The notes beneath the pieces were generated by a model. The model was not told the DNA's origin. It saw only the letters and a list, made by a program, of their open reading frames with translations, and did not search any database. A DNA stretch of 64,000 nt from Caecitellus pseudoparvulus (lineage: Eukaryota > Protista > Bigyra: Bicosoecida): assembly GCA_965644315.1 (NCBI GenBank), contig CBFFRQ010000029.1:124001-188000 (forward strand). The letters run 5' to 3'. Shown here piece by piece: positions 7,552-60,783 of the stretch; position 1 is the stretch's first letter; the number at the start of each line of letters is the position of its first letter. The position numbers and the translations under genes were made by a program.

Positions 7552-7559
7552 TGAATTCA
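7552..7559. terminator. Palindromic TGAATTCA: candidate shared 3'-end signal (AATTCA on both strands) of the Rac and DOCK genes
   Basis: Perfect 8-bp palindrome in the 78-nt gap between convergent stops. It matches the AAT[G/T]CA motif found after most stop codons in the window. Function is inferred. Confidence 0.55.
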
Positions 7560-7618
7560 ATGTCAACATGCTTGCTTGAAGCCTGTCGAGTACATACCGC
7601 ACTTGTCTACTGCACAGC

Positions 7619-10600
7619 TCACCGCCTGGAGGCGGCGGCTTGGGCCCCGATGACTTGGGACTCCTGGCTCATTTGCCTTGCCTGAGTGCCCTCGAAGCGC
7701 GCCTCCTCTAACGGAACGCCGAGGCCCTCTAGGCGATCACACAGCCCAGCCAGCTTCTCGCACAGGTAATCATGCAGGGGCAGCATGCTGGCGCTGCACT
7801 TCGTTGCGTGCAAGACGAGGCCTTTCCCGCACACGGTCAGCTGCTCCGAGAGCGCGTGTCGCAGCGCGGCAAGCGCAGGCGCGTCTGCATCTGATCGGGC
7901 ATCTTCACCCACCAGTTCGTGCATGTCACTTGACTGTTTGCGCTCTGGGGCACCTTCTGAGTCGCTGTCACCGGCGACGGTGTGGATGCTGTGCGTGCTG
8001 ACCACGCTGGAGCGCCAGTTGCCAATGATGCGACCATACCGTACCTTGAGTTCCTCTAGGATTTCCGGGTACGTCTCTACATAGCTGCCAGTGAGCAGGG
8101 TCTCATAGTTGGCAATGCCCCCTTGCACAGCCGCATCCAGCACTCCCTTCAACTGGCCTGTGAGGAAGTTTACGTCGGTGCCGGCAGGGGCGGCTGCCGC
8201 ACGTTGAATGGCGAAGCGCATGTCCGCCGTCTTCTCTCGCAGCACGAGAATAGCGCTGTCAAACGGAGTCATGAGCACAGTGTGGGCATGTGTCACTTGG
8301 CTGCGGCGATGCAGGTTGGGAAAGGCAGAGCTTGTCACCAGCCACGTGTACCGCACCCAGATGTCCAGCGACTCATTGCCAGTTTTGCGTACTTTGACAG
8401 GCCGCTTGCTCAAGAATACGCGCACTCGTGAGTACTCCCGCCCCTGCAGCAGAGGTCGTGGCACGTCGTCGTACTTTGACGCCTGGGCCCTGGCAGCACT
8501 CTGCACCGCTGCAAGCACTGGTCCCCACAGGGACTCCCACCGCTGGCCACCATCGGCGTCGACGGGTCGGCTGCTGCCCTGCGCATCCTGCCGCGTGGGC
8601 ACAAAAGACATGCTGGGAACGGTGACGCTAGGAAGCAGAGCGGGCGGCAAGAGCTTGAAGCCCGGGGGGAGCGCACCTTCTGAGCCATGCTCCTCCAGAC
8701 CACTCTGTACTAGTTGCAGCACACCCTCACCCATGTCCAAGCTGTCCAACCTGCTCAAACTGACCGCGCTGTGCCTTGTACCGGAGCTGACATCAGAAAC
8801 CGTTCGCTCAGCGGCTGCAGCTGCGGGCATTTGGCTGGAGCCTTCTCGAACAGAGGACAGCCCACCCCCAGAGCTAGCACCGCGAGTGGAGCGCACCATG
8901 GATGAGCGTTTGGTTGGTAGCGTTGAGGGGCTAAGCACTGATGCCCGTCGAGTAGCGCTCACAGGCTTCGCAGCACTGGGCAGAGTGGTGGGCATGCGAG
9001 TATCGCTCGCCCCGGCACAGAGCACTGAGGCGACTGCGCTGTCCAGGTCAATGTCTTGAACCAAGGCTGCTGAAGTCAACGCATGAAGCGAAAAAGCGCC
9101 AGTCTTCAGCGATGGAAGAGAGCGCAGCACGGCCAGGGTGCGGGGGTGCGCAAAGGCCTCTGCAGGAGGAGGTGGGGCAAGAAGTTGTCGGGGCGTCTGG
9201 ATGAAGGCTGGCTGGTGCGGAATCTGCGGCGGCAAAGTGTACGACTTCCATGCAACGTGAGAGGGTGGCACCATGGCCCCCGACACTCCAATCTTGCGCG
9301 CCGTCTTGCACAGAGACGCAAAGGAGGCGAATGCATGGTCAGCCTCCCCTGTCGGCCCAACACTCGCCAGCAGCCCACTTGCCCGGAGTTCAGAGGGCGG
9401 CCCGTCATGCCACTCAGGGGAGGGTTCAAGCGGGGGAACACCATAGGCAGCCAGGTGCTCCTCCACATACAAAACCGCGCCCTCAACAGCCTCTTGCTCA
9501 TGCAGGGGGGCTGGGTCCACCGCCATGACCGCAATCCTCAAGTCCCGGTGCCAAGGAAGCTCACTCACATCCAGGGCCTGCTGCGTTGTTGTTTGAACTG
9601 CAGAGATGTCATCTGCGACTCGTGCTGGTGCGCCGTCCAGGTGGCTTGCCTGCCGCAGCGGCTCAAAAGGCACCTTGATGAGGCTGGGGGCTCCAGGCGG
9701 GAGCTGCTCAGGATCCAACGCACCAGCTGCTTGGAGACTGTCTTCCGTCGCAGACATAACGGTGGCCCACTTCAGCCGAAGCTGGCGCTCAAACACTGAT
9801 ACAGCGACCGTGGAGTGTGCCCTGTACACGAATGTGCGCCCTCTCAGTGAGGGGGGGAAAGCAGCCCCTACGTACTGCACAGCATAGTGTGGGCACCGGG
9901 CACGAGCCTTGCTGCGACCAGTGGACTCCTTAGCGAGTTTTGTCACGATTGCTGACGATCTTGACAGTACGTCGGCCAAGCTGTTGTATGCCTGTCTGGT
10001 GCCGACAGCAAAATACCGGCAAGAAAGCAGGCGGGCCAGAACCAGCGCTTCCTCCCAGTCTTGGCTCCCATCAGCCAGCGCTTCAAAAGCATCGTGCAGA
10101 ATGTTGGTCACGCTGTTTCCAGCTTCCGATGTTGGTGGTGGCATGCCGCCCTCCCGTGCTGCCACCAGGTCAAGGAACAGGAGCTGGGTGAAGGCCGCCT
10201 CAGCGTGGTTCCCAACTTCTGCGTGCAGCTTGGAGAGATACTTGACATACGTCACGAACAGGTCCGTGCGGTGAGTATTGCGCAAGTACTGAATGAGCGT
10301 CAGCGCCGCCTCAGTGCGCTCCTCTTCGAAGAGGGCGGGCGGGGAGCGGGGGTATCGGTTCACAGCGCGCAGCATCCTGAAAAGTGTGCGGCACTCTGCC
10401 AAGAACTGGGCCACTTCGGGGCGCGCTAGCAATCGAAGGTGCTGGGGGTCCATGCCATGCTGATACTGGGACCCAGACGCAGAAAACAGCTGCAGGAGCA
10501 TGTTCCCTGCTTGGCCCTGCCCTTTGTCTGAGTGAATGAGGCCCACGCCAAGCACAGGGAAGGTGCCCCCCCCCACACATGCTGAGGGTGGCAGCAACAG

Positions 10601-13600
10601 CGCCCCTCCCCGTGCCACGATGGCGTCAACGGCATCAATCGTCCATCGCTCACTGATGGGGAGGGTGGTGCTGGTATCAGCTTGGGTAGACAAAGCCACC
10701 GCAAATGAGCGCCGCTGCATGCGGCGTGGGCTGCTCTTGCCAGAGGATGCTACAACCTTGACTTCAGCCCGAATGATGTCAAAAAAGACGCTCCTGGCCC
10801 ATGACGCCATAGGTTTGTGACAGGCGTGCGCCAGTTCAAGGGCTGTTGGCACAAGGAGGGGCGCCGCCGCAAGTCGCAGGCGGTGCGGCAGGTAAGAGCC
10901 ATTCCCATCTGGGCTTTGGGCGAGCACCCGTGGGCTGGCAGTGGACGGAAGGAATGCCTCCGGTGCAGGTACACATGCATCGCCCCACAGCGTCGAAAAC
11001 GAGCCCATCACGGCTTCGCGAAAGTCTGGCATGCCCATGCTGGCGAGGGTTTTGACCACGGCACGTCGCCTCACGAGCGGAAGGTTTTCGACAGTTGCCA
11101 GCGGTGAAGTCAACAATGCAATGTGCGTGCGCAACAGAGGGCGTAACAGGAAACCAGCAGCCACGTCCAGCAAGAAACATGCCGCAGGTCCCTGCTTGCC
11201 AACATGACTGTGCAGGTACAGTGAAGCGCTGGCAATGGACGCCCAGTGCAAGCCTCGCAAACAAGCCACATGAGTCGTGCATGCTGCATGCACCCATGAG
11301 GCCGGATGAGGCGGGCGGGCCAGCAGCACCTCAATTGCTCCGGCAAGCCTGCGCAGCACAGCAAGCCGCCCGGCTTCGAGCAGTCCAGCTGTCATGAAGG
11401 GGTCCAGAGGACATGAACCCTCTATGGCTGCCTGCCCTTCCTCCTCTTTGCCAAGACCGGGGCCTCTCTGGCCAGTTGCGCGCTCAGCTGCACATGCACC
11501 CTGTCCTACGAGGCCTGATGCGTGCTGGCTTACCGCACGGCACAGAGCAGGGAAGCTGCCTGAAGGCATGAGCAGGAGGAGGGAAGCCAAGGTGTCTGCT
11601 AGCCACTGGTACAGCGTGGTCTTGCAAGGCTGCACACCAAGCGCTTCTCCTGCCCCTGGAAGCACACGTTTCACGGGCTCGTCAGGTGGGGAAGGTGCAC
11701 CCTCTGCGACACTCTCAGTTTCGGACTTATCCTCTGCGTGAGACGCCTCACTCATGGTGGAAAGAACGCCCATGCTGCGAGTTGTGAAGGTGGACCAAGA
11801 CCTGCGGCTGCCCGGCACATCCTCTGGGTCCTGGGGTATCGCTTCGCTGAACGACACAGTTGCCCCTTTGGATGGTGCTGGCCCTGGTTCCGCGGCAACT
11901 TGCCCGTCACCTCGTGCAGCTTGGAGCGGGGGTTCACTCCCCTCAGAAACCGCCGGAAGCAGCTTTGCAAGTGCACCCGCGGCAAGGAGCGGCTCATCTC
12001 CCAGCTCCTTTCCGGCCCCCACAACGTTCACAAGCCCGCCAGCAAGCAGGCTCAGCTGCGCAACGTGGCCGATGCAGGCCTGGAGCAAGACAAAGCAATG
12101 CAGCAGCGGAGTCTCAACTTTCTCATGCTCTGCACTCGGAGTGCGCTGGGCAGGGTCACCCCCAAGAAAGGCAAAGCGAGCCCTTGCAGCTCTCGGGACA
12201 CGCACAGTGTCTACGTCTTCAAGTGTGGGGGGTCGGCTTGGAAGCACAAGAGCACCTGCAACCACCTTGCCAATCACAGCCGCGGACCCTTGCGGCCCAA
12301 CTGGACATGCTGCCAAGTTAACATACTGCGCTGGGGCAGCAGGAGCCAGCAGGCGTGCATGAGGCGGAGACTGCAGGCTGCCAGGGGAGTTGTGGTGTGG
12401 TGCACTGGCATCAGAAGGCGGCAAGCCACCGCCCCCCTCACCTCCCACAGCCCCAACCTCAACGATTGCACGGCTCAACTCGGGAAGCGATGTGAAGACG
12501 GCCCATGCCGCGGCTGCCAGCGGCCCAGCGGAAGGGCCGCGGGCTGGAAGAAGTGGAGGTGTGGGGGCTGGTGACTCAGCTGGGGCAGATGCCACAGCCG
12601 CAGCATGGAGCTGTGCAACCATGCGGTGCAAAATGGCTGCAGCTAGAGTTCGCTCTGCTTCGTTAGAGTTCAAATGCACCTTAGAAGTGTGCGCGGCGGC
12701 GTTCCACAGCGCTGTGCCGGCCTCCATCCCCTCACAGCCACACCTAGCCGGTCGCGGAGCAAGCTCAGGAATGCAGAGCACTTGCTGGATGCAGCTGAGC
12801 TTGGCAATGGCCAATGCAGTGGAGGCTGGTACCCAGCCACGGTACTTATACGCCAGCGGCACACTGCGCCATCGGATTGATGCACCTGCGAGGCGTTGCT
12901 TCGAAGCCGTCCCTCCACCGAGCGTCTCCAGAGGTGGGTGTGCCGAGCCCGCCAAGCCGGACAACGCAGGCACCAGGGCTCGAGGCTGAATGGCTCGCAG
13001 CAGCTTCGCACACCAGGCCTGCAACGTGCTGCAGGAAGTGACACCCAGCATGACTGTGCACAGGGGGGCGACTGCTCGCAGCGCTGCAGTTTGCAGCACT
13101 GCATGCCATGCAAGGGTCTGCACGCTCGGTGCCTTGTCACCCAGCGGCGCGACGACAGGCAGCCTGCACACACGAAGCAATGCTTGTCGTATGGCCAGCA
13201 TAGCGGCAGAGGCTGAGGCAGCTCCGCCACCAGCTGCCAGTTGAGTGTGCACGAGCAGGCGTGCGACATCTGGCAGGCAGGCCAATACGAGGACAAAAAT
13301 GGACCGACACGCAGAATCCACCTGCTGGCCCTCCAACATGGCCTCTAGCAACGCTTGCGTCCATCGCGACAGAGGCTCGGCCAGCCGCGCTGGAAACGCC
13401 CCCCTGCCCATGCAATGTCTCAATGCAAGCCTAGCAACTTGCCGTACACTCGGGGTTGCGTAAATGTGCGCCCCCGCCAAATGCATGGGAACTCGTGTTG
13501 GCGAAGGGTCCTTGCTTTCGCCAGAAGCCGAGGCACTTCCGCCAGACGTGGACCGGGCGCGTTTTCCTCGCCGGCCATCTCCAGGGAGAACGCCGCTTCG

Positions 13601-16600
13601 GAGACTAGACGCGAGTGATCCCAGAGACGGCGGTGCCTTGCATGCGACATGGGCAGCCTGGCCTTGCATGTCCTCAGTCGCAACAGCGACGTTCGGGGGC
13701 GGCTCGGACAAGCCTTGGAGGGCGCTCAGATGCGTGAGAAGCAAGGAAATGGCAGCTTTTTTCAGAGGATGCTGCAAAACACCCCCGCCTTCCACAGAAA
13801 GCGGGCCGTCGCTGGCTGAATCCATCGTGGCTGTGCTGTCTGAATCGCTGCTGGCTGAAGGGTCAGCCGCAGCCCCTGCGTGTGACTGACTCGCCTCCGC
13901 GGTGCTGCCCAGCCACACCACTAGGTCGCTGAGGTGCCTGAACATGGGCTCCAGCACTGACAGCAAAGTGGGTGCTGGCAAATCGTGCAGCGCCCACAGC
14001 GCTGCCTCGAGGTGTGGACCATCTGTGTGGGTTGACCAATCATACAGAACATGCAGTGCGGCGTTGGCTGGGCGTCGTGGTGAGTCGGAGGTCACCTCCA
14101 CAACCACGTGCTCAGCCTCCTTGACCAGCAGCAAGCTTCGATCCCTGACTGTTGCTCGGCTCCTTCGAGAAGATTCTACGGCAGGGGAGGCTGCTCGCCC
14201 TGGCAAGGGCTCAAACATGCTGCGAGCCAGGGGCGAGTCCTCGAAGCTGCCGATGTACCCTGCCAAGTTCCGACGAGCATGCCCGGCAACGCTCGGGCGC
14301 CTGCTGCCACGCCTGCTGCCACCTCCACCAATCATAGAGTCTGCTCCGTCGCCGTCCATGGACAGGCGCAAGGCGGACGCGCGGCGGTAGGGTGCAGCGG
14401 ATTTCGCGACACTCCGCTGTGCGGTGGACATGTACTGCACAGCATCAAACACGGGGAGGGTGTACGAGCCAGCCCTCATGCCGACGCGAGTCCTTGGGTG
14501 GACGAGGGGGAAGAAAGAGAAACCCACCGGGAAGGACCTGCCTTCATTGGCAGAGACGTGGTAGTAAGCCAAGCGGATGTGTAGGGAGTCTAGCAGCTCC
14601 ACAGTGGGCACGACGAGAGTTACAGCTTCGTCCCACTCGGGGTCATTGACGTGGTAATACACAGCCGAGCGGTACTCGGGAGCCAGTTTGCGGCCTTCAG
14701 CAACGACGTGTTCGTGAGGCAAGTCCGGACGGATGCGGGACCCTGCTGCTGATCGAGGGCGCGGGCCTGCTTCAGGGGCCTCACCCTGGGATGACCCAGG
14801 GCTGGCATTCGAAACGCCAACTGGTCGAGTGGCGGACATGGAGCGGCGCCTGGTGGGTTTTGCAGCGTTGTTTTCGTGCACTGCGACAGAAACGACGCCC
14901 GACCCGTCCGTGAAGTGAGCTGTGGCTGGGAATGCGCCACCGTCTGCGTCTGTGGCCGTCCCCGTGAACGCGCGAGCGACACCCTGGCCCAGGTCACGTG
15001 GCATGGCAGAACTTCCCCAGCCGACACCCCTGACCAAACAAGGAAATACGGAGCCATCACGCTTCACCGCGTGAACTCTGACTTGCAAATTCAACCCTGC
15101 CTTCTTCTTGCCTTGGCCGAAGTGACCGCGCACCAAGCGGACGCGAATGTACGACACATGCGCTCCTACACCTTGTCCGTCCGAAACAGTGGCACCTCCC
15201 ATGCCTCGCAGCAAGCTGTCCAACGAGGAGTCGCGCTCCTCACCAGCAGCGGGGGTGTGATGGAAGGAAACGGAGCCTCTCCTAGTGCGAGTGGGCGCTT
15301 GGTATCCAGCGCAGGCTTTCAACGCAAGCAATTGCTCAGACTCAATGCTGCTGTAGCGCAGAAGCCGCAGTGCGTCCTTCATCGAAGCAGCCATTCCACG
15401 CACGCACTCCCAACGCCCTTGAACTTGCGCCGCAAGTCGTTGCACATAGGATGCAGGCTGAGTCGTAGTGAGGAGCACCTGGGATGCCATGTCTGTGCCA
15501 CACAGCCGGTGGAGGACCAAGGCATGCGCTTGGAGAGTCTCAGGATGCTGCGAAAGCAGCCTACTCGACAGGCCGCTTAGCTGAGCCGTGTGCTGTAGCT
15601 GGGGGAGGGCAGCGAGGAGTTTTTCCAGTGCGGGTGAAGGCGCATCTGCTGGTGCTGGAGTGGGTGGCTCCAGGCCCCCTCCAGCGCTGCTGTGCAGCGA
15701 CCGCAGTGTCTCCAGGACGTGGTGAGCAGTGGCGCTGGCGGAGTCCTCTTGAAGGAGCGCACATGCCACACTCCACAGCCACCCCCCCACCCCAGTCCAG
15801 TCGAACATTGGTTCATCGTCCCCCACATCTGCAGGCACGATGACGTCTGTGTGCGGACGCATCAAATCACCCCCCGGATGCACCGGCAGCATGTGGGGTA
15901 GTGGCTGGGAGTCGCTGCCACCAAGGGCTGCAACCTGGTCGTGCACACCCTCATGCCCTTCGGCCAGGGCTTGCCCAGCTGCGAGGGAAGCGGCCAGACT
16001 CCTCCGCGGAGCTTTCTTCCTCGTCTGGTGGGGTGACACAGTTTGGGCTTTGAGGGCCACTTGGGGTGCTAAGGGGCTCGCTGCAAGCAGCTGCCAATGC
16101 GCGTGCTGCCGCATGCTGCCCGACAGGGGGCCACAGTGGCCACCCCATTGGGGCTGGAGCCATGGCATGAGGGCCCCCACGAGACTTGCTGGTGGTGCAT
16201 AGCTTGCAGAATTACCCGCAAGAAGCTGTTCTGTTGCATGCTGGACACTGAAGGTGGCCGCTGTACCTTCAGCGGGAAGAAGGCGGGGAGCCGGGACAAG
16301 GGGAAGGGGCGCCTTGGCGCTTGCTGATCCAGCAAGCAAGGTTTCGGGCTGAACATCGCACCATGGCAAGTCAAGAACGGCCATATCCAATGCATGGACT
16401 GCTTCCTCTTCAGTCTCTGGTGCTGCCGCGTGCCTGACAGTGGAGTGAACGCGAGACACGCGCTCGTAGCGCGCCTGGGCACCTTCCCCCCCCCACCCTG
16501 CCCCTGCTGCGTGGTTTTGAACAATGTCCTCAATGCTCTGCAGGTTCTTCGCGATGCTTCCACTGCGGGGTGCCTCCTGCTGCTCCCTGTGCAAGCCAGA

Positions 16601-18433: not shown

Positions 18434-18642
18434 TTCGACTTGCTGGGGTGCCTGGCGGGCAGGCGCCAGGCAACCTTCGCTAACGCGCTGGCTGAGGAGA
18501 CGCGCAGGTCACTGGACTACCGGGGCAAGGTGCCGTTTGGGGCAGGTGTGGTGAGGCGACGTGAGTGCACGCTGCACAGGATTTGGGACCGCGGGTGCAT
18601 TTGTAGGTTCGGTCACCTGACCTGGTTGGCACAGGAACTGCT

Positions 18643-21600: not shown

Positions 21601-21949
21601 CCCGGAGCTCTGCGGAGCAGCGCGGGGTAAGGGAGTATGACGTGGGCTGTGCAAGCGAAACGCAGGTGTGCGCTGGGCTTACCTCCAGCTCATCGCACGA
21701 GAGCGACGGCCATACCCAGCGGCTCCAGGCCATGGCCAGCGCTGCAAAAAGCAGCGACTTGACGACGATGCTGTCCACCATGCAGGCCATGAAGGTGACG
21801 CCGGAGAAGTGGCTGCCTCCTTGGAGCGGAGGAGACCTCAGTGCTCCCGGGCCGACCGTAACACCGTCGTTGGCTGCGCCGGACTTGCGCAGCAAACGCA
21901 TGCCATCCCCGAGAGTGATGTCCGCCATGAACTCCAGCAGAGTGGCCAT
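18643..21949 (-). CDS. Multi-pass membrane hybrid sensor histidine kinase (TM sensor, HisKA, HATPase, receiver)
   Basis: H-box LMHEQRSPLNDI, N-box IVANALKFS, G1 VEDSGRGI, F-box WNPF, G2 GGSGLSL. Receiver ILVVDD...LILMDKEMPIMDG...VTGNA...LTKP. About 8 hydrophobic N-terminal segments. ATG at 21949, intron 21610-21682 and a probable in-frame intron 21385-21498. Confidence 0.9.
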
Positions 21950-23237
21950 CGTGCCCTTGCTGCCCGGCTTCGGAGCGGCGGGCGGAAAACGCTGCCAAGT
22001 TCCGCACGGGCGCTTCCGCCGACGAGGTACCAGGGAACAAGAGCAGAGGCCAGGGGACGAAGTAAGACGGGTCAGGCTTGAATATTCTGTATGCTTGTTG
22101 AAGTAGGGGGTGTCTTGCCGTTGCTGTCTGGCGGGGTTTGACGACTGCGGCTGACTGTCGGCGCAAGTGCTCGAACGAGCGTATCGCGGCGGCCCGCTAG
22201 TTCTCGGCGAGCCGTGGCAGCATGGGCCGCAGCCACACGGACAACTTCGTGGAAGGTAGGGGGGCACTTCCCTTGAGGCATTGGATCGATTGTGACCTGC
22301 CCTGGTGCCCTGGCGCTTTGCTGCGCCAACCGAGGAGTGTCCACGTGTTACGCCGGAGACGAGCGGGTGTTGTGTGCCGCAGGCGGAAGATGTTGAAGCG
22401 GCCAACTCCGCCCACCGAGACGGCGTTCTGGGGGCTGCGGAGTCCAAAAGAATCACGGCAGTGTGATCCCTTGTTTCATGACAAGATTCCCCGACGTGCA
22501 GCAGCTTGTAAGAAGGCTCCTGGCGGGAGTCAGGCACTTCGAGGTGCGGCCCCTGTGTCGGCAAAATGTGCGGGTGCCGATGTCGGGTCTGCTCCGCGGG
22601 GCTTGCAGGTCTGCTGCAGGCTTCTCTCCTCATGCTGGAAATGAGGTGTGGTGATCGAGGCAAGCACAGGCTGTCCTCCTTGCCGTGTCTCGAAGCTCGG
22701 CTGCGAACCGGTCCCTGTCACAGGTGGCAGAGGACAGCGTTTCACGAGAGTTTCAAGCGCGAACTACCCTCCGACGTCGTACTTCAAAGAATCAAAGCCT
22801 GGGTGCCCACGAGTTGAAGGCGGACAAAGAAAGCAAATCAAACAGGGCAAAAATGAGTATGTGTGATTTGCACTTTACAATGAACAGAACAGCGTGCAGC
22901 TGAGCCCATCTGCTTGGAGACAAGCGTGTCGACACGGCGTTGGCTCTTGTCCGAACAAGGAGGCCAATGGCGGAGCGTCGGCAAATAAAAGGCACCAGCA
23001 AGTGGAACACACACGTTGTTTTGTCGCTCCTCCCTATCAATGGTCTCTCGACTCGTCCCTGGCCCCAACCTGCCTCTGGCTAGTGACGTGCGCCACAACC
23101 ACTGACCTGTCCCTTGCGCAAGCCGGGCCCGCCTTTTGAATTGTCGGTACACGGAGTTTGCAGCGGCACACAGAGGGAACCGTGTTATCAGGCTTCTTGG
23201 GCCTGCTTGGTCTGGTTCAGACCCTGCAGTGCGCGCC

Positions 23238-26200: not shown

Positions 26201-26370
26201 TTCACGGTGCAGTGGTGGCGACAGGGGTGCCGCTTCGAGAGGGCAGCACTGGGGGGGGCTCAACTGGCTCCCCCGACACCCCCACGCCTGGGCGCTTGAC
26301 GCAGTGGGGTGAAGGCCCCTCCGGCTCCCCCCGTGCGCATCCGCCGCCGGGGGAGCACTCTAAGCATTGA
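23238..26370 (+). CDS. ATG11: Autophagy scaffold ATG11/RB1CC1(FIP200)-like
   Basis: Ubiquitin-like start (LQVVQAHTGQ...RVEDLLQAV, after intron 23318-23516). ATG17-like region LPTAYKAAVHEVARRR...E..RR..F...LP..LFPGM...FDQALPAID. C-terminal Claw (VAFSGFMPGRNALFL...YVAFNIGAPHHY...NPHGV..G..FF.V). Confidence 0.85.
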
Positions 26371-26375
26371 ATTCA
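26368..26375. terminator. Palindromic TGAATTCA including the ATG11 stop codon: candidate shared 3'-end signal of ATG11 and GAS8
   Basis: TGA 26368-26370 is the ATG11 stop. The 8-mer reads AATTCA on both strands, and the GAS8 stop lies 15 nt from the minus-strand copy. Function is inferred. Confidence 0.55.
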
Positions 26376-26388
26376 TTTCATGTCATGG

Positions 26389-30406: not shown

Positions 30407-30493
30407 GCGCGACAGCCGATGCTGAATGCATGCACGTTGCGAAGAGGCGGGGGGCACAGTCGTGGGTGGCTGGACATGCATTCTTCTGCCCTG

Positions 30494-32076: not shown

Positions 32077-32623
32077 GGGGTCTGCACGGTGTGTGTTTCC
32101 GTGGCCCTGACACTTGGACACCTTGCTCTGGCCCAATAGCTGCACGAGAATGCACTCCTCCAAAGCTCCACGCTCTCTGCGTCCGATCGAGCTGGCCCTC
32201 CTGGTGTCATGGCCTGCAGCCGCTGTCTGCGTGGCTCGCAAACAGCGGCGTGGTGCATGATGTGAGCACGATGTGCCACATCCCAGCAGCAGCTCACCAA
32301 GCCAAAGCGGGGGGCGCTAGCCGCCACAGCACCCCGGATGGGACTCAGAGGCCCCATGTGAAGCAATTAGTCCGCTTTGCATCACTAGGTTTTGCGCCGT
32401 CGCCCACACTGCCCTCGCGCTGGGCAGCTCACGCACTCGTGCTTGCCTGCCCTCTCTCTCGCACATGCAGGTGGGGTTGCGAGCCGAGCCGCAGCGAAAG
32501 ACATGCAGAAATCCTGCCCAGTGCGACAGAGGCCGTGTCTTCACAACATGCGGCCGGCACTGGCGCACCCTCGTGTGTGCAGGGCCGCGCTCGCTTCCTG
32601 GCGCAGACGCCCAAACCGTGCAT

Positions 32624-33855
32624 TCACCTGCCGAAGTACTCTGCCGGGTCGAAATCCCCACTTGGGTGTCGGGCCTGAGAATTGGCTTGGGCAGGAGGGT
32701 GGCGGTGCCTTCCTCCCGCGGCGTGGTGCCGGTGGAACTCCCGGTCTTCCAGACGCCGCCGCAGCGCGAATTCATCCTCTGGGCTCCAGGCATCGCGCCC
32801 CGACCCGTCGTGATGCCGCCGAGGGTGGTCTGCGCCAGGTTCACCCTCGTCCACACCATGCATGTCCAGAGATGGGACGCCCAGAGCTGGAATCGGCTGC
32901 AGAGCCCAGGGCGAGTCGTCCTCCAGTGCAGCTCTGCCAGGCCCGAGGTGACTGGAGCCCTGGATCCCCCCCTGCTCCTCTTCAAAGCGCGCATGGTGGT
33001 CGTCGTGGTCATCCTGTGCCCTCCAGGGTTTCATGTCTTGCTCTGGCGTCCAGGAGCCGTCGTGCTGCTCTTGCTCGGCACCTGTCGAGGCTTGCACCTG
33101 GCCGCCGTCACCGCCAGCCCCCAGCGCAACCTGAGGCTGCCCCATCGCAAGAGGCGAGGCTGGAGGCGGCGACCGACCACCACGCAGTGCCAAGAGCAAG
33201 GGGGGAGCTGCTATGACCATGCCCTCAGCATGCCCCTCCGGCACCAGCTGCCCTGACGACGACAGCAGAGCGCTGCCGTGCTGTGCCTTGAAAGCAGCGA
33301 TCTCCGCAGCTGCCGAAAGGAATGGCGAGTCCTCATACTGCTTGCCGTACTCCTCGCGCAGTGTGGACCCGATGTCCTGCAGTGTGGGTATTGGCGGGGC
33401 GTGCACCACAGCATGGAGGCCATGCGCCAAGGCACCTCACCGCTGAAGATGCCAGCAGGCTGCCCAAGCACAAGTCCCCCGTTTTCAGAGTCATGTAATC
33501 CCACGTCAGTGAAAAGGCGAGGGAAGCCGGCAGGAGTCTGTACTGGGATGTGGCTGGGAGCCGGCGCCCAACGATGCCAAGAACTGCGCAAAGGACCACC
33601 CGCACGGCGTGAGCAAGACGAGCCACGTCGAAAGGCAGCAGGCTACACACCTCCGTACGTCACAAGAGCCATCGCCCCAGCCCCCCCCAGTTTATACCCA
33701 AACAAGTTGCGCTGGCACATGGTGTACGCTTGCTTCACGTCCACGTCAAGCCTGCGCAGAGCAACGAGCACGTGCCAACGTTTCGCTCGCGTTTCCCCCA
33801 GCCATGTTACGCACTCAGGCAGTGCTGAAGCCAGGGCTTTCCCGGCAGCCTCCAT
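32624..33855 (-). CDS. Hypothetical membrane protein with possible OCIA-like N-terminal domain and long disordered tail
   Basis: Introns 33752-33814, 33584-33650 and 33377-33440 join one frame: MEAAGKALASALPELDVDVKQAYTMCQRNLFGYKLGGAGAMALVTYGVLGIVGRRLPATSQYRLLPASLAFSLTWDYMTLKTGDLCLGSLLASSADIGSTLREEY...FDPAEYFGR. The gene model is well supported; the family call is weak. Confidence 0.6.
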
Positions 33856-34518
33856 CGCCGCATAGTGAAGGTTTGTATTAAGTGGTTTTGCGATTTCCTC
33901 GCCCTTCTGGGCGCCCTCCATGCCTGGAGCGACGCTGAAGCGGGTTCGTTTGCTGACCTGGCTCTCTGCCTGAGAAGCCACGCACGTCCGGCACGTGAGG
34001 CGAAGTTTGCGCTGCTGGAGAGCCAGCACGTCATCAAGAGTGAGCCAATTTGTGCAAAACACTTAGAAGAGTTTGAAGCGTGCTTGCTTTTGTCATCCAT
34101 TGGCACAGTGACGCTCAACTCAAAACAGTTTCAAACAGCGAGTCCTCCTTGCAGAGAGACAGCAGACCAAAGGATCCGAACATTGACTTTGTAGTTACAA
34201 GCATGCCTGGCGTAGACGTGAAGGAAATAGTCTCCTGAGTTCCAACCAAAGCTCTTGGCGGACTAGGTAGAGTGAAGGGCGTAGTTTCAACCCTTTCATC
34301 AAGAATGTAGAGCTCGTGCGTGCAAATTGCGCTCAGCAAGTGTGCAGGGGCGATTGGTCCAAGTATCGGGCACCTCTCGGACAACACGAGCAAGCTAACT
34401 TGTGAATATGTTGACAAGTTTTACATGAGCAACGATAGAGCGCCTGGAGTGCATTGGGGCCGCACGACAGCCGCTCGCGCGGAGGCAAGGGTGGGGGGGG
34501 CAGTCATTGCTAGGAAAT

Positions 34519-36252: not shown

Positions 36253-36949
36253 ATGTCGTCCACGACTGCTTCCGATGACGACAAGAAGCTGCAGCAGGTT
36301 GAAATCGAGAATCAGCCGGCTGTGCAGCGCTTCATCGGCGATGTGATGGCCGCTGTGAGTGTCAGGTGCAGGCAGCGCGGCAGCCAGCTGTCAAGCACGC
36401 ACCACTGGCTTGCCCCGCAGCGGCTGTGTGAGAAAGGCGCAGACATCAACATGAACGTCAGCAATTTGAAGCTGGCCTTGATGGCAGTTGCCTGTGCTGC
36501 GGCTGTGTTGACGCACTTCAACGGCATGGACTTCCCCGACAACCGCTGGGTCATCGGCGCTGCCATCGCTGCGTACGTGATCATCTCTGCCGTGCTGCAG
36601 CTTGTCTCGTGGCTGTGGGAGGAGGACACCATTTGCCGGACGCTCCCAGGCAAGGTAGGTGCTGTGCAGCTGCGCTTGCTCCGGCGCCTGCTGCTTATCC
36701 CCCCCCCATGGCGTTCTCCTGCAGACGGAAGGGTGGGGCGACATGCCAGCGTTGCATTTCACCATGAACATGGAAAGGGGCAGCACGGCCTTCAGCCTCC
36801 ACGTTCGGAATGAGAACGAGCAGGAGTTGGCAGAGCTGAAGGCTGACATGACCCAGTACTTCACCTCCAAAGGGCACTTTGCTCGCTCCGTCTTCCTGGC
36901 CGACTTTGACGATCTCGTCTCGCGAGGGCTCAGCAAGGCAAGGGACTGA
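36253..36949 (+). CDS. SPCS2: Signal peptidase complex subunit 2 (SPC25/SPCS2-like)
   Basis: Two TM helices flanking FPDNRWV (SNLKLALMAVACAAAVLTHF..MDFPDNRWVIGAAIAAYVIISAVLQ..W..EEDTI) and a C-terminal QYFTSKGHF. Introns at 36355-36420 and 36655-36724. Confidence 0.8.
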
Positions 36950-36959
36950 CTCCCACCCA

Positions 36960-40405: not shown

Positions 40406-40457
40406 TCAGCAGGCTCCGCTGCTCAGTGCGCCAAGACCCACAGGGGGACTAGGAAGG

Positions 40458-40465
40458 AATGCATT
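40458..40465. terminator. Palindromic AATGCATT: candidate shared 3'-end signal of the CDK-like and kinesin genes
   Basis: Perfect palindrome in the 67-nt gap between convergent stops, reading AATGCA on both strands. Function is inferred. Confidence 0.55.
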
Positions 40466-40472
40466 GGTGGCC

Positions 40473-54100: not shown

Positions 54101-57100
54101 TGCGCCTGGGGGCTGGGTGGCGCCACAGCGTGGCCATCACTGGAGACCACCGGGTATGGACGTGGGGGCACGTGTCACCCAGCTTGCTGCCGCGGCACCC
54201 ACGCTCCGCATTTGCCATTGGGGCCACCGTGTCCACGACAGGCCACGCGCACGTGCCCAAGGGGGCTGGTCGCCGTCGGGCACCAGCGCAGCTTCCCGCG
54301 CCTCCTGCGCCCGCCACCAACCGCCAGCGAGCCGCCGCTCGCCGTGCCAAGTTGGCTGCCGTGCAGTCCTCGAAGAAGGACCTCCTTGCCCGCAGTCTGC
54401 TGACATCCTTCATGGCAGGCGTACAACCAGTGGATGACGCAGCAAGGGGAGCTGCGGGGGGTCGTGGCCAGCAAGCACACCTTAGTCGGGAGGACGAGTT
54501 GGCTCGGCACATTTACGAACACATGATCGCTGGTGATGCTGCACAGGAGCACGCAGAGGCAGCAGGCGCGCAGGGGGTGGCGTCCGATGCGCCTGCCGAT
54601 GACGAGCAGGCAGAAGTGGTGGACGAAGTGGCGGATGAAGGCGGCTACGCACCTCTCGCAGTGGACCACACGCATGTCGTGGTGGCCATGCCCACTCGGG
54701 TGCCCTTCGTCACCAAGGCACGGCATGCCATCGACGTCACATGTGCTGCTGGCCCAAGTCTCAGCGTCACAGTGCTCGGCTACGAGCAGCTGCTGCTGCA
54801 GAACTCGTCCTTGGACGATGACAGTGACAGCGACCCAGAGTGGGGCGCAGCTGGCGGGCTGGACCCTGAGGACGTCGTGGATGGTGCGGTTGCAGACGGG
54901 GATCTGCTGTCTGCTGTCGCCGAGACGGAGAGTGCTGAGGCTGCTGCCGCGGCGGCGTCCACCCGGCGGGGCTCCTTTGTGGACGCCCAGCGAGCAGCCA
55001 TGGTGCGGCGAGCCCACGACGAAGCGGGAGACAGCCCGGGTAAACCTTGGCCCCTCGCATCCCCTGACTTGCGGGGGGGCGACGAGGAGGCTCGTGGCAA
55101 CGCCGCCACCGTCACGTCAGGGGGCGTGCACCCCCACGCGAACGCGACAGGAGGCGTCCTCGCCTTTGTCGGCGTGGACCGCTTCACCCGTGTCAGCACA
55201 CACGATGTGCGCAAGCCGGGCGCTGTGTGGATGACAGGGAAGGGGCAGGGAGCAGCTGCCCCGCCGGACGTGTCTGCTGCCACGGCGGCAGCGAACGCCA
55301 CTGTGGCAGAGCTGTCCACCGCACTGCTGCCCCCCGGCATGACCCTGGCGCAGGCCCAAGAGCAAGTACGCACCGACCGTGCGGCGCGCACTGCACTCTT
55401 GGCAGCCCAAGCTGAGCAGGTGGATGTCATGCGGCACTTCAAGCTGTCCCCCACGCAACGGGCACTTGGCATCCTTGAGGCTGCCCGAGTGCCGCCTGAG
55501 GAAGCCGCAGAGGGGGACACGCAGACAGAATCCCGGCTGGGCATGCCTCCTCGCATCGACCTCAGCAGGGTGCCCCCCATCAGCGACCTGGCTGTGGCGA
55601 CGGCGCTCGCCTTCATCGTGGATGCCAAGGCATACGGCGTGGCAGCCGCGGAGGCCGCCGCGCGCATCGCCGGCGCTGGCAGTCTGCACCTGGCACCTGT
55701 GCCTCCCCTGAGCATTTTGCTCTCAGCGTGGAGGCGGCAGGCGTCGGAGAGTGGTCGCAAGCTGGACGCCGCGACACGGTCTAGCCCCCATGCACTGGCG
55801 CCAGACACGGCAGCTCAACTGCTGGAGCTGGTGTGTGCGTGCCCCGCTGGCGGATGCCTGCAGGCGCAAGGTCTGGCCGTGTTCGGGCAGGTTGGGCGGG
55901 AAGCCGACACGCCCTTCTTTTACGGTGACGGCAGCAAACCTGTGACGCTTGGCCAGCGGCGCATGAGCCTGCTGCCCATTCGGGACCTGCTGACGGGCCG
56001 AGCAGTGATGGCAGCTCGGGTGAGCCGCCTGGCGCTGCGCTTGTGGACGGTCAGGCGCCTGGCCAAGGCAACTGCCAGTGCTGAGCTGGCCCTGGTCAGT
56101 GCAAAGGGGTCCCCTGGCAGTGCGGGGGGACGCCCCGCGGGCAGCCCGCCTCGGTGGGCCACAGCGCCCCTGACGCCTGCCCAATTGGTGCCAGAGCTGC
56201 CCCCTTCCTTGCTCAGTTCGCCCCCACCAGCGTCCGCATCAACACGCCAGTCTGCTGTGCCTGATCGCCGTGACTCAATCATCGCTCTGGCGGCTGGCGC
56301 CATGGCCGCGGAGGCGGGGCGGTCAAGCACCATCCAGGCCCACACCCTGCTTGGGGGAGACGTGCCTGTCTCCCGCATTGTGCAGCGCGATTGGCGCATG
56401 GCAGCGCTGTTCACACCCCACTCCCTGCTGCCCTTCACCTGCCACATCCGCATTCGGGGCCGCAGCCGCGAGGGAGCTGCCTTTGACTTGGAGCGGGAGA
56501 CTGCTGTGAAGGCCCTGGTGCTGCAGAGGGAGGCCGCCTTGGCGACACATGCGTTCCTGCTGCAGCGCCTGCTGCAAGAGCGCCGGGTGGGGGTGCTGGG
56601 CGCAGGCAAGCTTGGACCCGAGGGCAGCGACTTCAGGCGGCGCTTGCTGTCCCGGGCGCGCGCCCCGCCGCCCCAGCCCGCCCCACGCAAGAAGCCCGCA
56701 CGCGTCTCCGTGCCCATGCCTGCACCTGTGGCACCTGTGCCCGCCCCCGAGGCGGCATCTGGGGACCGAGACACGAGCACCAGCAGCCACATCAGCCTGC
56801 GCAGCTCTTCCAGCCAGTTGGAGTCGCACAGCAGTGACGAGGCCCCCACACAGGAGCAGGAGCAGGTTGCCCAGGGCAACGTTGGAGAGGCACAGGCTCC
56901 CGTGGGGCGTTCTGGCATCGCCCTTCCCACCCGGGAGCGCAGGTTCGTGGACAGTGCCATGTCTGCCGACATCTCCAGTCGCGTGCGACGCGCCATCTCC
57001 AGCACCGCCGGCGTGTCGCCGCAGCAGTCCAGCCCTGACAGCTCCAGCGCCTTGGTGCAGTCCACGGCAGACATCGTTGCACGTGCAGCAGCGAGAGCCG

Positions 57101-58077
57101 CGGCGGCGGCCGATGAGCTGTGGAATGCCCCCGCAAAGACGGGCACTTCCCCTGAGGCTCGCCTTGCGAGTTCCATGGCTGCCTCTGCAGCACACTTCGA
57201 GGCGACCAAGCCGCCTCCAGCCCCAGCTGGTGCGGCAGCCTCCTTCAGCCACACCTTTGGAAGCACATTTGCAGGCGGCGGGGGCCCCGCCCCTCCGCCG
57301 TCGCCGACAGACAGCCTGGAGCGGGACCTTGACAACACCGCCGGGCCTCTGAGCCGCGGCGACCTGGCAACGCCCGCCCAACACCAGGCGTTTGGCGACT
57401 CTCTCCTGTCTGCCGCCGGCACCCGGCGATCAGCCGACTCTCTCGGCGAGGAAGAGGAGCCAGAGCCCCCTCGCCCCATCCCTGTGCCCACCGCATCTCG
57501 CCTGCAGCCAGCCCGTCGAAACGGGCGGCGACATGGTGCTGGCAGGAAGCACCTTGCGTCCCCAGCGCCGACGAAGATCCCCCAGCACAAGCGCACAGGG
57601 GGTGGCTATGCCTTGCCAGGCACTGGCCGTGGCGCTTCGCCTGCTCCCCCCGGCAGCAGCCCACCACGTCTCACTCACCGGGGGCCCGCCACCGGCATGG
57701 GTGATGGTGTGGACGGCCCGGTGATGGGTGACGCGCCTCGACGCCCCGTCACGTCCCCAGGGGCCTCCAAGGCCGCCTCCACGCAGAGGGCCGACAGCCC
57801 TCTGTGGAACCCCGGTGGCAGCTACCTGAATGCGTACCGAACTGGGGCCCCAACGGCGGCGCTGCCGGGACAGGGCCATGGGCGCACGTCTTCCCGTGGC
57901 TCCCCCTCGCGAGACCGGGAGGTGGGGGAGTGGGGCAGCCCGCCGCCTCCGAGGACATCCCCCCCCAGGCAGCGCGCGGATGAGGACCTGCTGCGCACCT
58001 TGCACCAGTCCAGTGCCGCGACCATGCGAGCAGTGGCCCACTCTGACGCCCGGCACGGCACACCAGCTCGCCGGTGA
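45147..58077 (+). CDS. Giant unconventional myosin: divergent head, about 8-10 IQ motifs, RCC1/ATS1-like repeats, long disordered tail
   Basis: Head: LHEPAVLHAL..RF....YTFSGPLLVSLNPF, PAHVF, P-loop GSVGAGKT, SSRYG, LLERARV, RNFNVFY, LVDMPGWE, QLCVNY, FTVRH...VTY, FVRCLLPN, QQLRVSGV. IQ region about 50110-50830. RCC1 repeats AVGSSHTV..VYTFGWGDEGQLG, IAAGAEHTL..VFAWGCNAVGQLG, IAAGRYHSL..VFTWG, GAGWRHSV..VWTWG. Intron 45555-45657. Confidence 0.9.
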
Positions 58078-58375
58078 TGGGCAACCGCCCAGCCGAGCAA
58101 ATACACTGTCTCAGTAAATCCCAGCACACCACACCCTGTGCTCAGCTTGTGCAGCTCTGTGGGCTGCCATACTTTCCAGGATTTCACTCCCCGGCCTCGT
58201 CCGTCAGGGTCTGGCGCTTGTCTGGAAGGCAGAGTCGTCGCTTGCGACGAGCGCTGTGCCAAGCGCTGCTTTGCCACCGGTCCGTGCGCGGCACCCTGGC
58301 AGGCTCCGAGGCGCAAGGTGCGGAAGAGGGCATTGGAGTGGCTGACAAGGCCGCGTCAACCCCCCCTGCTCAAGC

Positions 58376-60676
58376 ATGGCAGTGCCTAACCCGCCCCACT
58401 TGGACATGTTCACCGAGCCAGGCAGTGCGCTGCTCAAGCTCTCTCCCTTCCTGAAGCACTTGTACAGCATGCTGGAGCTGCCTGACAGCGACCCGAGCAT
58501 CATGTGCTGGTTGGCGAGCGGGAATGGCTTCTTAGTGCTCGACCGCACCCGACTGTGCAGTGACGTGCGTGATTCCGTGTGTTGCGTGCCAAGGTGCAGC
58601 GCTGCCAGCCGCCCCGCTGACGCCGCGGTTGGGGCGAGCCAATGCCTCACACGTGGGCTCCCTGGGCTTCCTAGGCTGGGCGGTCTGGCTGCAGCTGTCA
58701 CCATTTCTCGCGATGTTCCCTGCGTGATGCACGGCTGAGCGCGCCAGCCTCCCTTCTGCCACCATGCGGTCGACCGTGGCAACTGCCCTTTCCCGTGCCA
58801 CCGCCCAATCGGCTGCGCGCACCGCCGACGCAGCAGCAGTCACCATGCACTGCATTCTCCGTGAGGGCCACAGGTGCTACCGAAGTATGTCAAGACGCGC
58901 AATTACAGCTCGTTTCTCCGTCAGGTGCGTGCGCCGGGCCTGTGAGCGTTTGGCTCCGCCCAGCCCACATCTCTCAGTGTCATGGCATCGCCTCCACACA
59001 AAGCAGATGTTGCTGCGCAGCCCCTCACTCGCCACGCAACCTTCCTCACAGGTGTCCTTCTATCAGTGCGTGTTGCATGGCCCTCATCCTGTGCCCGCTG
59101 CAGGCAGTGTGCAGCGACTACTGCAGCAGCGAGCCAACGCTTGCCTGGCAGCCTCTGCTCCTCACTTACACTTTGTCACGAGTGCGCTGGCCCGCACTCT
59201 CGCCGCACTTGCGCTGCACCAGGTTCCGAAAGGTGCCCAATGCCGACCTGACCGTGGATGACCTTCCAGATGAGCTCTGCAAGGCGCTTCTCAAGCGTGC
59301 AGTGGAAACTGCAGGTGCGAGGCACGCCCACCACATCACTTCCGCACGCGGCTGCTCCCTTCTGCAGCCTGCTCAAGGCGGCAGCCCAGCACGGTACACC
59401 CCCCCCCTCCCCGCCCGCAGACCAAGCAGGCACCGACACCAGCTCCCCACAAGCTGCAGTGGACAGTGGGGACGTGTTCAAGATGCGGGAGTACTTGACC
59501 CGCACAAGCCTTGTGAGGGACATTCTCAGCGCAGCTGATGTCTTTCGGCACGACGATTTCCTGCGGCGAGATCCGTCAGCACTGTTGAGGATCACGCGCA
59601 GAGTGCCCCAGAAGCGGCAATACTCGGCGACAGGCAACAGGGCCGGCGTGGGGTCAGCTCAGGGCCGCCACTCGCCTCGCTCGCCAACCAGCGCGGGGTC
59701 CGTGCCAGGCATGCACAGTGCCTTCCAAGGGCCATATGCACCCCCCCCTCCGCCTTCCTATGCAACCCCCCTGCCACACCCTGGGAGCATGCCTCCCGGT
59801 GCAGCACAAGGCTTTACGTCCTTCCGATACGTGCGCCCTCCACCGCCCGGCGCACCTGGGCCGCAATCCTCCGCTGGTACATTGTCAGCGCCCGTGCTGC
59901 TCCCCCACACCAGCAATGCCGCGTCAGGTCCGACTGGCAGCTGGCAAGAGAGTGTGACAACCCACACCGGGTATTCCTCCGCCGCCATGGCAGCGGCAGG
60001 CGCGCTGTCAGGCCTGGCGAGTGGGCACACGTCCGCGCCTCGCCCGCGGTATTGGTCCCCCACTGCCTCGGACATGCCTTCTTCAGGCACTGATAGCACG
60101 GGTTCCCCCCGGTCGGGGGCTGCCGGTGGCAAGGCTGGCGACTTTTCCCACCTCGGCGGCAGCGTGAACAGCCTTTCCCCTCGAGCCAACCTGCCAGCCT
60201 TGCAGCCCAGTGGACCGTACGCTGCTCACCCCCCGGTGCTTGGAGCGCACCAGGGGGGCCCTGTGCAGTCCGGTATGGCAGGTGCCGCCTTCTTCCCCTC
60301 CATGGACAACAGCTACTCCCCCCGCCAAGGTGGTGCCATGCTGCAGACGTCCCCCCGCATGGTGCCCCTCGGAGCCAGCGCCTCTCCTCGCCACCGCCCA
60401 GGCAGCACCTCTCCCCGTGCCTTCATGTCTGAGCCCAGCTACTCGCCCAGGCTTATCGTGGGGCAGGGCGGGGAGCGGCCAGGGTCTCCTGGGCCTCTAC
60501 CGCCAGGCACAGTGGCCTTGCTTCCGGACTACGTCAACGCAGAGTCTCCCCGAGCTCTGCATGTGGCGCCAACACGCAGTGGCAGCGAGGGGCGCTCCAC
60601 CTCCCCTCGGCCGGCCGCCGTGCATGCCGCCCACGGTTCTGAGTTCAAGGGCGCGGCACAGCCTGTGTCGCTGTGA
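58376..60676 (+). CDS. HSF-type DNA-binding transcription factor
   Basis: Exons 58376-58564, 58874-58924, 59052-59065, 59223-59314 and 59421-60676 give PFLKHLYSML...IMCWLASGNGFLV.D...VLPKYVKTRNYSSFLRQVSFYQFRKV...FRHDDFLRRDPSALLRITRR, then a Ser/Pro-rich tail. Confidence 0.88.
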
Positions 60677-60773
60677 GAGTCGGCCAGCGCCACCCCCCCC
60701 CCTGTGTGATTTTACCTCCCCTGCAGTGCCAGCGTAAGGCACTCGTCACCAGAGCGCAGCCAGCACAACAGCG

Positions 60774-60783
60774 CAATGCATTG
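60774..60783. terminator. Palindromic CAATGCATTG: candidate shared 3'-end signal of the HSF and RSPH9 genes
   Basis: Perfect 10-bp palindrome within gcgcaatgcattgtgc, in the 137-nt gap between convergent stops. Function is inferred. Confidence 0.55.

Follow-up and report, generated by a model that had tools for sequence, protein, structure and literature searches.

Palindromes between facing genes as putative shared polyadenylation signals in the bicosoecid Caecitellus pseudoparvulus

How do two genes that converge tail to tail end their mRNAs when the DNA between them holds one short palindrome that reads as the same hexamer on both strands? The question is raised by a stretch of 64,000 bases from Caecitellus pseudoparvulus (the window), a host that a quick one-gene tree places with Cafeteria. 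Gene bodies take up 57.5 of the 64 kb, as in a dense genome. Pair counts, gaps, and gene ends were taken from the gene models of this analysis, which give estimated positions for gene starts and for the boundaries of tandem and divergent gaps. We consider it fairly probable, at roughly two chances in three, that AAT[G/T]CA is the poly(A) signal of this host and that each palindrome between facing genes is that signal for both mRNAs.

Palindromes in the convergent gaps

The palindromes lie in four of seven convergent pairs and in none of the six tandem or seven divergent gaps. In the 64,000 bases, TGAATTCA has two occurrences (7552 and 26368), and so does AATGCATT (40458 and 60775). The first-pass annotation had counted four of six tightly spaced pairs, which is correct and becomes four of seven once the 547-nt gap is included; all six sites that it listed were found in place. 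Between the Rac-like GTPase and DOCK genes (stop-to-stop gap, 78 nt), TGAATTCA at 7552..7559 gives AATTCA on both strands, the plus copy (7554) 14 nt past the Rac-like stop at 7540 and the minus copy (7557) 62 nt past the DOCK stop at 7619. The 18-nt ATG11/GAS8 gap has TGAATTCA at 26368..26375, with the minus copy 16 nt past the GAS8 stop at 26389; the TGA at 26368-26370 is itself the stop codon of the ATG11-like gene, a detail absent from the earlier annotation. In the 67-nt gap between a CDK-like kinase and a kinesin, AATGCATT at 40458..40465 serves up the hexamer on both strands, 53 nt past the kinase stop (40405) and 8 nt past the kinesin stop (40473). The longest palindrome, CAATGCATTG at 60774..60783, again carries it on both strands and lies in the 137-nt HSF/RSPH9 gap. 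Its plus copy is 99 nt past the HSF stop at 60676 (about 38 nt if a putative intron at 60672-60725 is removed), and its minus copy is 32 nt past the stop of the radial-spoke (RSPH9-like) gene at 60814, whose last exon matched no Pfam name.

That both hexamer variants can be completed to a palindrome had been noticed before, and the relation is exact: among AATNCA forms, self-overlap with the reverse complement is possible only for AATGCA and AATTCA. It spans four bases and yields AATGCATT and TGAATTCA, respectively. Each palindromic gap holds exactly one AATNCA per strand. Because neither strand of these gaps offers a second AATNCA, each 8-mer likely serves both mRNAs, a reading that is based on sequence. 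The earlier proposal that one 8-bp element ends two transcripts is partly supported: the sequence favors it, and RNA reaches one side of one palindrome, that of the kinesin gene.

The remaining three convergent pairs have no palindrome. The fructose-bisphosphate aldolase (FBA) and bL36 genes, 87 nt apart, instead end at two separate oriented copies of AATGCATG, as previously described, at 30425 (plus, aldolase) and 30482 (minus, bL36); each copy is one base from AATGCATT, and a gap of 18 nt is predicted between the two mRNA ends. In the 547-nt gap behind the B12D-family gene, a single AATGCA (plus strand; 32149..32168 including the tail site described below) follows the stop at 32074-32076 by 73 nt. 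Its facing neighbor, an unnamed gene on the minus strand, ends in TGAATGCAC (32618..32626), where the TGA stop overlaps AATGCA in a dual use of the same bases. The third pair, an SPC25-like gene and an unnamed gene (36960) with 10 nt between their stops, is a long-overlap pair: the AATGCA of the unnamed gene (36753..36758, minus) lies 202 nt past its stop and within the facing SPC25-like coding sequence, spliced contigs (X5, X16-X19) join the two genes, and no AATNCA follows the SPC25-like stop for 300 nt.

Tandem ends carry non-palindromic copies. These are AATTCA at 991..996 (plus), 25 nt past the YEATS stop, and AATGCAC, as reported earlier, at the ends of XRN1 (6514..6520, plus; 9 nt past the stop), a histidine kinase (18595..18601, minus; 42 nt), and eRF1 (34449..34455, minus; 64 nt). 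At a further tandem end (61840..61917, minus), the unnamed gene with its stop at 61945 is followed by AATCCA at 28 nt (61917) and AATTCA at 100 nt (61845). The myosin gene has AATACA 23 nt past its stop (58100..58105, plus), probably a minor variant of the signal. The three unnamed genes (32624, 36960, and 61945) matched no Pfam name.

The hexamer as a stranded 3'-end signal

End statistics were based on the 20 stop codons in the window. A coding-strand AAT[G/T]CA falls within 105 nt past the stop in 17 of 20 genes, where the background would supply one with a probability of 0.036 per stop; three genes lack one. AAT.CA is the top gapped hexamer (18/20 ends within 110 nt, versus 10 for the next), and the commonest plain hexamers after the 20 stops are AATGCA (11) and AATTCA (6). 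Neither AAUAAA nor AUUAAA is among the 15 commonest hexamers there, which sets these ends apart from the canonical class. Of 18 gene-end copies, 10 are non-palindromic, and the stop codon is fused with the signal at two of 20 ends.

The gene bodies (57.5 kb) have a single AAT[G/T]CA in sense but 24 in antisense (p=2e-5, with codon usage allowed for). In 12 long exons (45 kb) the sense copies number zero against an expected 6.3, a result that 300 synonymous shuffles never reproduced; this test omits short exons, among them the one with the sense exception at 37947, which the gene-body count includes. That exception, an AATTCA inside a coding exon (37947-37942), indicates that the hexamer is not sufficient everywhere. 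Similarly, in X17-X19 a T>C change at 33876 makes a sense AATGCA, yet the transcript is spliced further on.

RNA evidence comes from assembled, unstranded contigs, and the results hold among the pieces and loose ends listed. One X5 contig has 10 A residues behind 32168, 14 nt past the AATGCA of the B12D-family gene; they are non-templated, since the next genomic bases are CACGCTC. This is the sole poly(A) tail seen, and it calibrates the spacing from signal to tail at a non-palindromic copy. One X16 contig reaches about 32328, beyond that tail site. Spliced contigs of the aldolase gene (X4) and of eRF1 (X6) end at 30443 and 34448. Of the four ends available, the tail lies at +14 nt from the motif, a contig end at +13 nt, and the other two, also contig ends, just past it.

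At the palindromes, RNA was compared for 26368 and 40458. A contig from X5 (40456-40799, depth 30) crosses the 40458 palindrome and then stops, covering the kinesin side only; the CDK-like kinase gene has no cover in X5, and neither this nor the lack of cover at the GAS8 end was counted as evidence. The ATG11 contigs listed (X16-X19) extend to 26288-26303 and fall 86-101 nt short of the predicted end. This shortfall resembles the eRF1 and aldolase contigs and therefore says nothing about 26368. No poly(A) tails were seen among the loose ends listed for X16-X19 (two samples).

We conclude that the motif likely acts as a stranded poly(A) signal, AAUKCA in RNA. It is apparently undescribed in the role of an mRNA 3'-end signal, which we consider likely, as no description was found in the literature searched. 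In the proposed mechanism, AAUKCA would be the signal for cleavage and tailing at a point some 13-14 nt further downstream. Both polymerases would pass through the palindrome, and each transcript would be cleaved about 19 nt beyond the first A of the copy on its strand. The resulting mRNA pair would have an overlap of about 32 nt with AATGCATT or 36 nt with TGAATTCA, centered on the palindrome. The 19-nt spacing predicts 3' ends near 7573 (plus) and 7538 (minus) for Rac/DOCK, 26389 and 26354 for ATG11/GAS8, 40477 and 40446 for CDK/kinesin, and 60794 and 60763 for HSF/RSPH9. Cleavage on both strands around any one palindrome is inferred.

Chance, selection, or lock-in

All enrichment tests are post hoc and concern seven pairs. 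If the four palindromes were spread evenly over intergenic DNA, all would fall in convergent gaps with p=0.0006, and Fisher's test of 4/7 convergent pairs against 0/6 tandem ends gives p=0.049. Independent placement of two signals produces the palindromic register in a mean of 0.02 pairs, and none of 200,000 trials reached four. When chance is instead allowed to complete the flanks of an existing copy, for which per-copy estimates ranged from 0.03 to 0.20, p is 0.0004-0.028 at 0.03-0.10, 0.099 at 0.15, and 0.22 at 0.20. The enrichment depends on the null, and its significance is lost if flank completion is at least 0.15. Nor are the gaps rich in palindromes generally, since only one other 8-mer palindrome occurs in the seven.

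In another reading, the signal is real and each palindrome has one user, the two extra bases being accidental and the partner ending at a looser signal. The non-palindromic flanks do lean that way (TG before 2/10, TT after 1/10), three of the 20 genes have no AAT[G/T]CA within 105 nt, and RNA covers both sides of no palindrome. However, four chance completions are required, all in convergent gaps, together with four partners devoid of a copy of their own in gaps that hold exactly one AATNCA per strand. Since 9 of 12 other genes have their own copy within 105 nt, the chance that four partner genes all lack one is about 0.25^4=0.004, and we regard a single user as unlikely. It is likewise rather unlikely, we think, that both genes use the palindrome because selection favors its product, whether a fixed overlap of 32-36 nt (for mutual regulation, small-RNA production, or control of polymerase collision, for example) or shorter intergenic DNA. 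Four of seven convergent pairs in this register, the density of the genome, and the palindrome that doubles as a stop codon would fit such selection. Against it, palindromic gaps measure 18-137 nt and the others 10, 87, and 547 nt, separate copies (FBA/bL36) and a long overlap (the SPC25 pair) coexist with sharing, the paired genes have no obvious common function (Rac/DOCK excepted), and yeast convergent pairs with common termination zones are uncorrelated in expression, according to the part of 10.1101/2022.11.02.514956 drawn on here. The extreme compaction that the first-pass annotation expected does not emerge, because palindromic gaps are not shorter than the 10- and 87-nt gaps. Compaction was discarded as the driver, the shortest gap (10 nt) having no palindrome; sharing saves only 4 bp over back-to-back copies.

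Dimer-bound DNA sites are typically perfect palindromes of 8-10 bp, and the confinement of the palindromes to convergent gaps would suit a double-stranded site for a dimeric protein between converging polymerases (a roadblock terminator, an insulator, or a nucleosome-positioning site), loosely tied to the RNA signal. We hold this to be very improbable: as two different palindromes they would call for two proteins, although both arise by self-overlap of a single stranded hexamer, non-palindromic copies are equally distant from RNA ends, and the depletion in gene bodies is strand specific.

If, as we favor, the palindromes are poly(A) signals for both genes, the simplest account of their enrichment would be one-way lock-in. 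A copy for the facing gene would arise by one or two substitutions next to a signal already present; the facing gene's old signal would turn redundant and decay, and selection would then hold all eight bases. Flanks at tandem ends would stay free because they have no second user.

Relation to known signals and significance

In yeast, UAUAUA is an upstream efficiency element, whereas the hexamer studied here takes the place of a core signal, the one tail seen lying about 14 nt beyond it. The two systems are alike in that one palindromic element is common to convergent genes: bidirectional termination zones in yeast center on palindromic UAUAUA, in the portion of 10.1101/2022.11.02.514956 cited. 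There, sense and antisense 3' ends are symmetric around the element and 3' UTRs overlap, which in Caecitellus is predicted. The yeast element is already palindromic as a hexamer and lies in zones of about 120 bp; here an asymmetric hexamer must gain two bases to work in both directions, and the predicted overlaps are 32-36 nt. No UAUAUA-like AU-rich sequence was found: the sequence differs, and three of the four palindromic gaps are 46-64% GC. Mimivirus transcripts also end at palindromes, through an RNA hairpin and viral enzymes (PMC4402537, in the part consulted). A hairpin mechanism was rejected here, as palindromes of 8-10 bases are too short for a stem and 10 of 18 copies are non-palindromic.

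Another relevant system is the Giardia signal AGURAA, which the cited part of PMC9014877 describes as depleted in open reading frames and as forming dual-use stop codons. Like AAUKCA, it is a derived hexamer in a compact protist genome, avoided in open reading frames and sometimes fused with the stop, and its spacing of 13-15 nt compares with 14 nt at the one tail seen here (PMC9014877 and PMC11529991 for Giardia, in the parts cited). The changed positions are 2 and 4 in Giardia and 4 and 5 here, and the lineages are unrelated. As AGTRAA cannot overlap its own reverse complement, facing copies of the Giardia type could lie only side by side; AATAAA is likewise unable to overlap itself, unlike AAT[G/T]CA. 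Other lineage-specific replacements of AAUAAA include UGUAA in green algae, UAA in diatoms, A-rich signals in Phytophthora, and a downstream UGUUUG in Blastocystis. None of these is AAUKCA, and bicosoecids are not among the species listed, in the parts of PMC6413133 and PMC4360255 used here.

Compared with AAUAAA, the motif keeps A1, A2, U3, and A6, so that zinc finger 2 could still make its contacts and U3 and A6 could still form their Hoogsteen pair, and G/U-C replaces A4-A5, the bases that zinc finger 3 reads (PMC12421377, as far as cited). Single changes at A4-A5 lower the affinity of human mPSF 30-62-fold, and importance is attached to a purine at position 4 (same source, same part). Such costs predict an altered reader. 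We would expect it to be the usual CPSF30/WDR33 module, recognizing a signal that retains A1-A2 and the U3-A6 pair and alters the two bases contacted by zinc finger 3 of human CPSF30.

An ortholog pair from a related species was not found in 2 of 64 metagenome parts or in viral contigs. A scan of those parts with the aldolase exon (80 loci) gave no close relative (best, 69% identity); the top five loci have AT-rich 3' ends in which AATACA occurs once and neither AATGCA nor AATTCA was found, and they are too distant to bear on the motif. Viral-contig scans with GAS8 and eRF1 gave no matches.

The evolution of poly(A) signals and their readers is called an open question in the cited part of PMC11529991, and stramenopiles are thinly sampled for such signals. 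A signal that keeps A1-A2 and U3-A6 and changes the zinc finger 3 pair makes a direct structural prediction about CPSF30. A wider proposal, to which we give slightly less than even odds, is that in one bicosoecid lineage zinc finger 3 of CPSF30 has been rewired to AAUKCA, that about half of its facing pairs end at a shared 8-mer with fixed overlaps of 32-36 nt genome-wide, and that at the extreme TGAATTCA could hold two stops and two signals in 8 bp. Sharing of a palindrome would extend the yeast precedent to the core signal, and counts of shared and separate copies, over convergent pairs and over related species, would pit neutral lock-in against selection. The motif could also aid the annotation of these abundant marine grazers and may serve as a terminator for transgenes.

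AAT[G/T]CA as a stranded 3'-end signal

AAT[G/T]CA is a stranded 3'-end signal in this window, in which ~21 genes (by the gene models) occupy 57.5 of 64 kb of eukaryotic DNA at 64.4% GC. With the B12D stop position corrected, 17 of 20 stop codons have the motif within 105 nt downstream (background chance per end, 0.036; p ~3e-22, for a distance chosen post hoc). Unbiased ranking of hexamers after stops placed AATGCA first (11/20) and AATTCA among the next (6/20), and gapped AAT.CA occurs at 18/20 ends, the runner-up at 10. The 45 copies in the window include 1 sense and 24 antisense copies within gene bodies; 11 of the 24 lie in the 10.9-kb DOCK exon, which has no sense copy. Across 12 long exons, 6.3 sense copies were expected and none was found, a count reached by 0 of 300 synonymous-codon shuffles. 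The same exons also have no sense AATACA (1.4 expected) or AATCCA (3.0 expected); as these occur after the myosin stop and the stop at 61945, they may be weaker variants. The role that the first-pass annotation assigned to the motif is thus upheld, and we put the probability that AAUKCA (K, G or U) is this organism's poly(A) signal at about 0.9.

Most of the earlier gene names are backed by Pfam (YEATS, XRN1, Ras family, DOCK, histidine kinase, ATG11/17-like, GAS, aldolase, L36, eRF1, kinase, kinesin, myosin, and radial spoke, with B12D also above the cut-off); HSF and SPC25 have only sub-cut-off matches. The histidine kinase (18643-22000) is a membrane hybrid with a receiver domain, and the myosin (45148-58077) is very large, with an open reading frame (ORF) of 4,172 codons, IQ motifs, and RCC1-like repeats.

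Palindromes between convergent genes

The palindromes are real: TGAATTCA occurs in the window only at 7552 (Rac/DOCK) and 26368 (ATG11/GAS8), and AATGCATT only at 40458 (CDK/kinesin) and 60775 (HSF/RSPH9), the coordinates quoted earlier all proving correct on recheck. Seven convergent pairs are separated by 78, 18, 87, 547, 10, 67, and 137 nt. Counted within the window, a palindrome lies in 4/7 convergent, 0/6 tandem, and 0/7 divergent gaps, in agreement with the proposed preference for tail-to-tail pairs. At 7619-18508, an intronless DOCK-family ORF of ~3,600 codons faces the Rac-like GTPase gene, a candidate exchange factor (GEF) and its substrate class with one palindromic end in common. 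A possible intron (60672-60725, GT...CAG) covers the HSF stop codon and would shift the stop to ~60737.

AATNCA variants can overlap on opposite strands in two forms only, AATGCATT and TGAATTCA, the forms observed, in which the opposed copies have four of their six bases in common; the idea that both motif variants can be completed to a palindrome therefore holds. Such self-overlap is impossible for AATAAA, TGTAA, AATGAA, and AGTRAA and possible for ATTAAA and TAAA. Each palindromic gap contains exactly one AATNCA per strand, and the palindrome copy is the first after the stop in all eight flanking genes. Two signals placed independently would yield 0.02 palindromic pairs on average. A second null, in which one gene's signal is completed into a palindrome by chance, gives p = 0.0004 to 0.028 at completion rates of 0.03 to 0.10, rising to 0.099 for a rate of 0.15 and to 0.22 for 0.20; rates estimated from the flanks span 0.03 to 0.20. 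Chance completion further requires that four partner genes have no copy of their own (~0.004, computed from 9/12). From these seven pairs, we consider it likely that the palindrome serves both mRNAs as a signal, with cleavage predicted on both strands at each site. The claim that one 8-bp element ends two transcripts is supported by geometry and the single AATNCA per strand; among the contigs listed, RNA reaches a palindrome on the kinesin side only. A 19-nt distance from signal to cleavage site would give overlaps of 36, 36, 32, and 32 nt; the predicted aldolase and bL36 mRNAs would end 18 nt apart, without overlap.

Extreme compaction, which had been put forward for this arrangement, does not account for it, because sharing saves just 4 bp and palindromic gaps are no shorter. 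We favor an origin by lock-in, whereby one or two substitutions would turn any copy into a palindrome that, once two genes depended on it, would not be easily lost. The aldolase and bL36 copies, both AATGCATG, are one base short of a palindrome.

Transcripts and exceptions to a simple rule

Among the contigs listed from four RNA sequencing runs (region 22001-41500), splicing at GT..AG introns indicates RNA from the organism itself or from strains close to it. One contig carries ten As behind 32168, 14 nt past AATGCA at 32149-32154, where the genome reads CACGCTC. The aldolase contig of run X4 ends at 30443, 13 nt past the hexamer, and the eRF1 contig of X6 at 34448, 1 base past the motif. At 40458, the only palindrome with RNA among these contigs, a kinesin contig of X5 (40456-40799, depth 30) crosses the palindrome and ends 10 nt short of the predicted end; in that run, the facing kinase gene has no cover. 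Contigs listed from a second set (X16 to X19, two samples) confirm introns, with no poly(A) tail and none reaching 26368 or 40458.

Seawater and marine metatranscriptomes are among the runs with matching RNA. A quick tree of eRF1 (41 rows, no bootstrap) groups the window's protein with two environmental proteins and next with Cafeteria, on a long branch (SH-aLRT 95). The organism is thus probably a marine stramenopile resembling bicosoecids. An eRF1 that NCBI labels Symbiodinium sp. KB8 has 99% identity to the protein encoded here; its placement near Cafeteria suggests a co-cultured contaminant in that assembly.

Some copies do not end transcripts. AATTCA at 37947-37942 is sense, within a coding exon, and read through; 33879-33874 is AATACA in the window and sense AATGCA in X17 to X19, the transcript being spliced 60 nt on. 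Both lie at most ~270 nt from the RNA 5' end, just before a 5' splice site. Promoter-proximal poly(A) signals are suppressed in animals, and similar suppression would fit these copies. An X16 contig (31982-32328), with several T/A differences, extends ~160 nt beyond the B12D tail site at 32168, by read-through or to a distal site.

The SPC25-like gene (+) has no AATNCA within 300 nt after its stop, the nearest variant being AATCCA at 37344. Within 36253-38069, it and the facing − strand gene, the latter presumably NSE1-like by eye and without a Pfam match, end 10 nt apart and are joined by spliced contigs in five runs, including X16 to X19. The signal of the − strand gene lies 202 nt inside the SPC25-like coding sequence, which fits a 3' overlap of at least 200 nt. 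Divergent promoter regions contain or border on three − strand copies (23137-23142, 31101-31106, and 38213-38218) that follow no annotated stop, the last lying 3 nt after a 101-codon − strand ORF (38221-38526); antisense transcripts or a small gene may terminate at these copies.

Recognition and relation to known systems

AAUKCA would be recognized by CPSF30/WDR33. In the human mPSF, as described in the cited passages, zinc finger 2 contacts A1-A2, zinc finger 3 contacts A4-A5, and the U3-A6 pair lies under WDR33 (PMC12421377). Since AAUKCA differs from that site only at the pair contacted by zinc finger 3, this finger is predicted to differ here. The palindromic UAUAUA element of yeast works two-way, with symmetric 3' ends according to the part of the study drawn on (10.1101/2022.11.02.514956); the window palindromes would act likewise, outside that sequence family. 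The signal is fused with TGA at 2/20 ends (26368 and 32624), resembling the stop codon fusion described for some Giardia signals (PMC9014877). Derived hexamers are reported, in the passages cited, from Giardia (PMC9014877, PMC11529991) and algae (PMC6413133, PMC4360255). The literature searched, mainly open texts without supplementary motif tables or most subscription journals, yielded no bicosoecid poly(A) signal and no organism whose main signal is AAUGCA/AAUUCA. The AAUKCA signal is the best-supported new element of this genome region.
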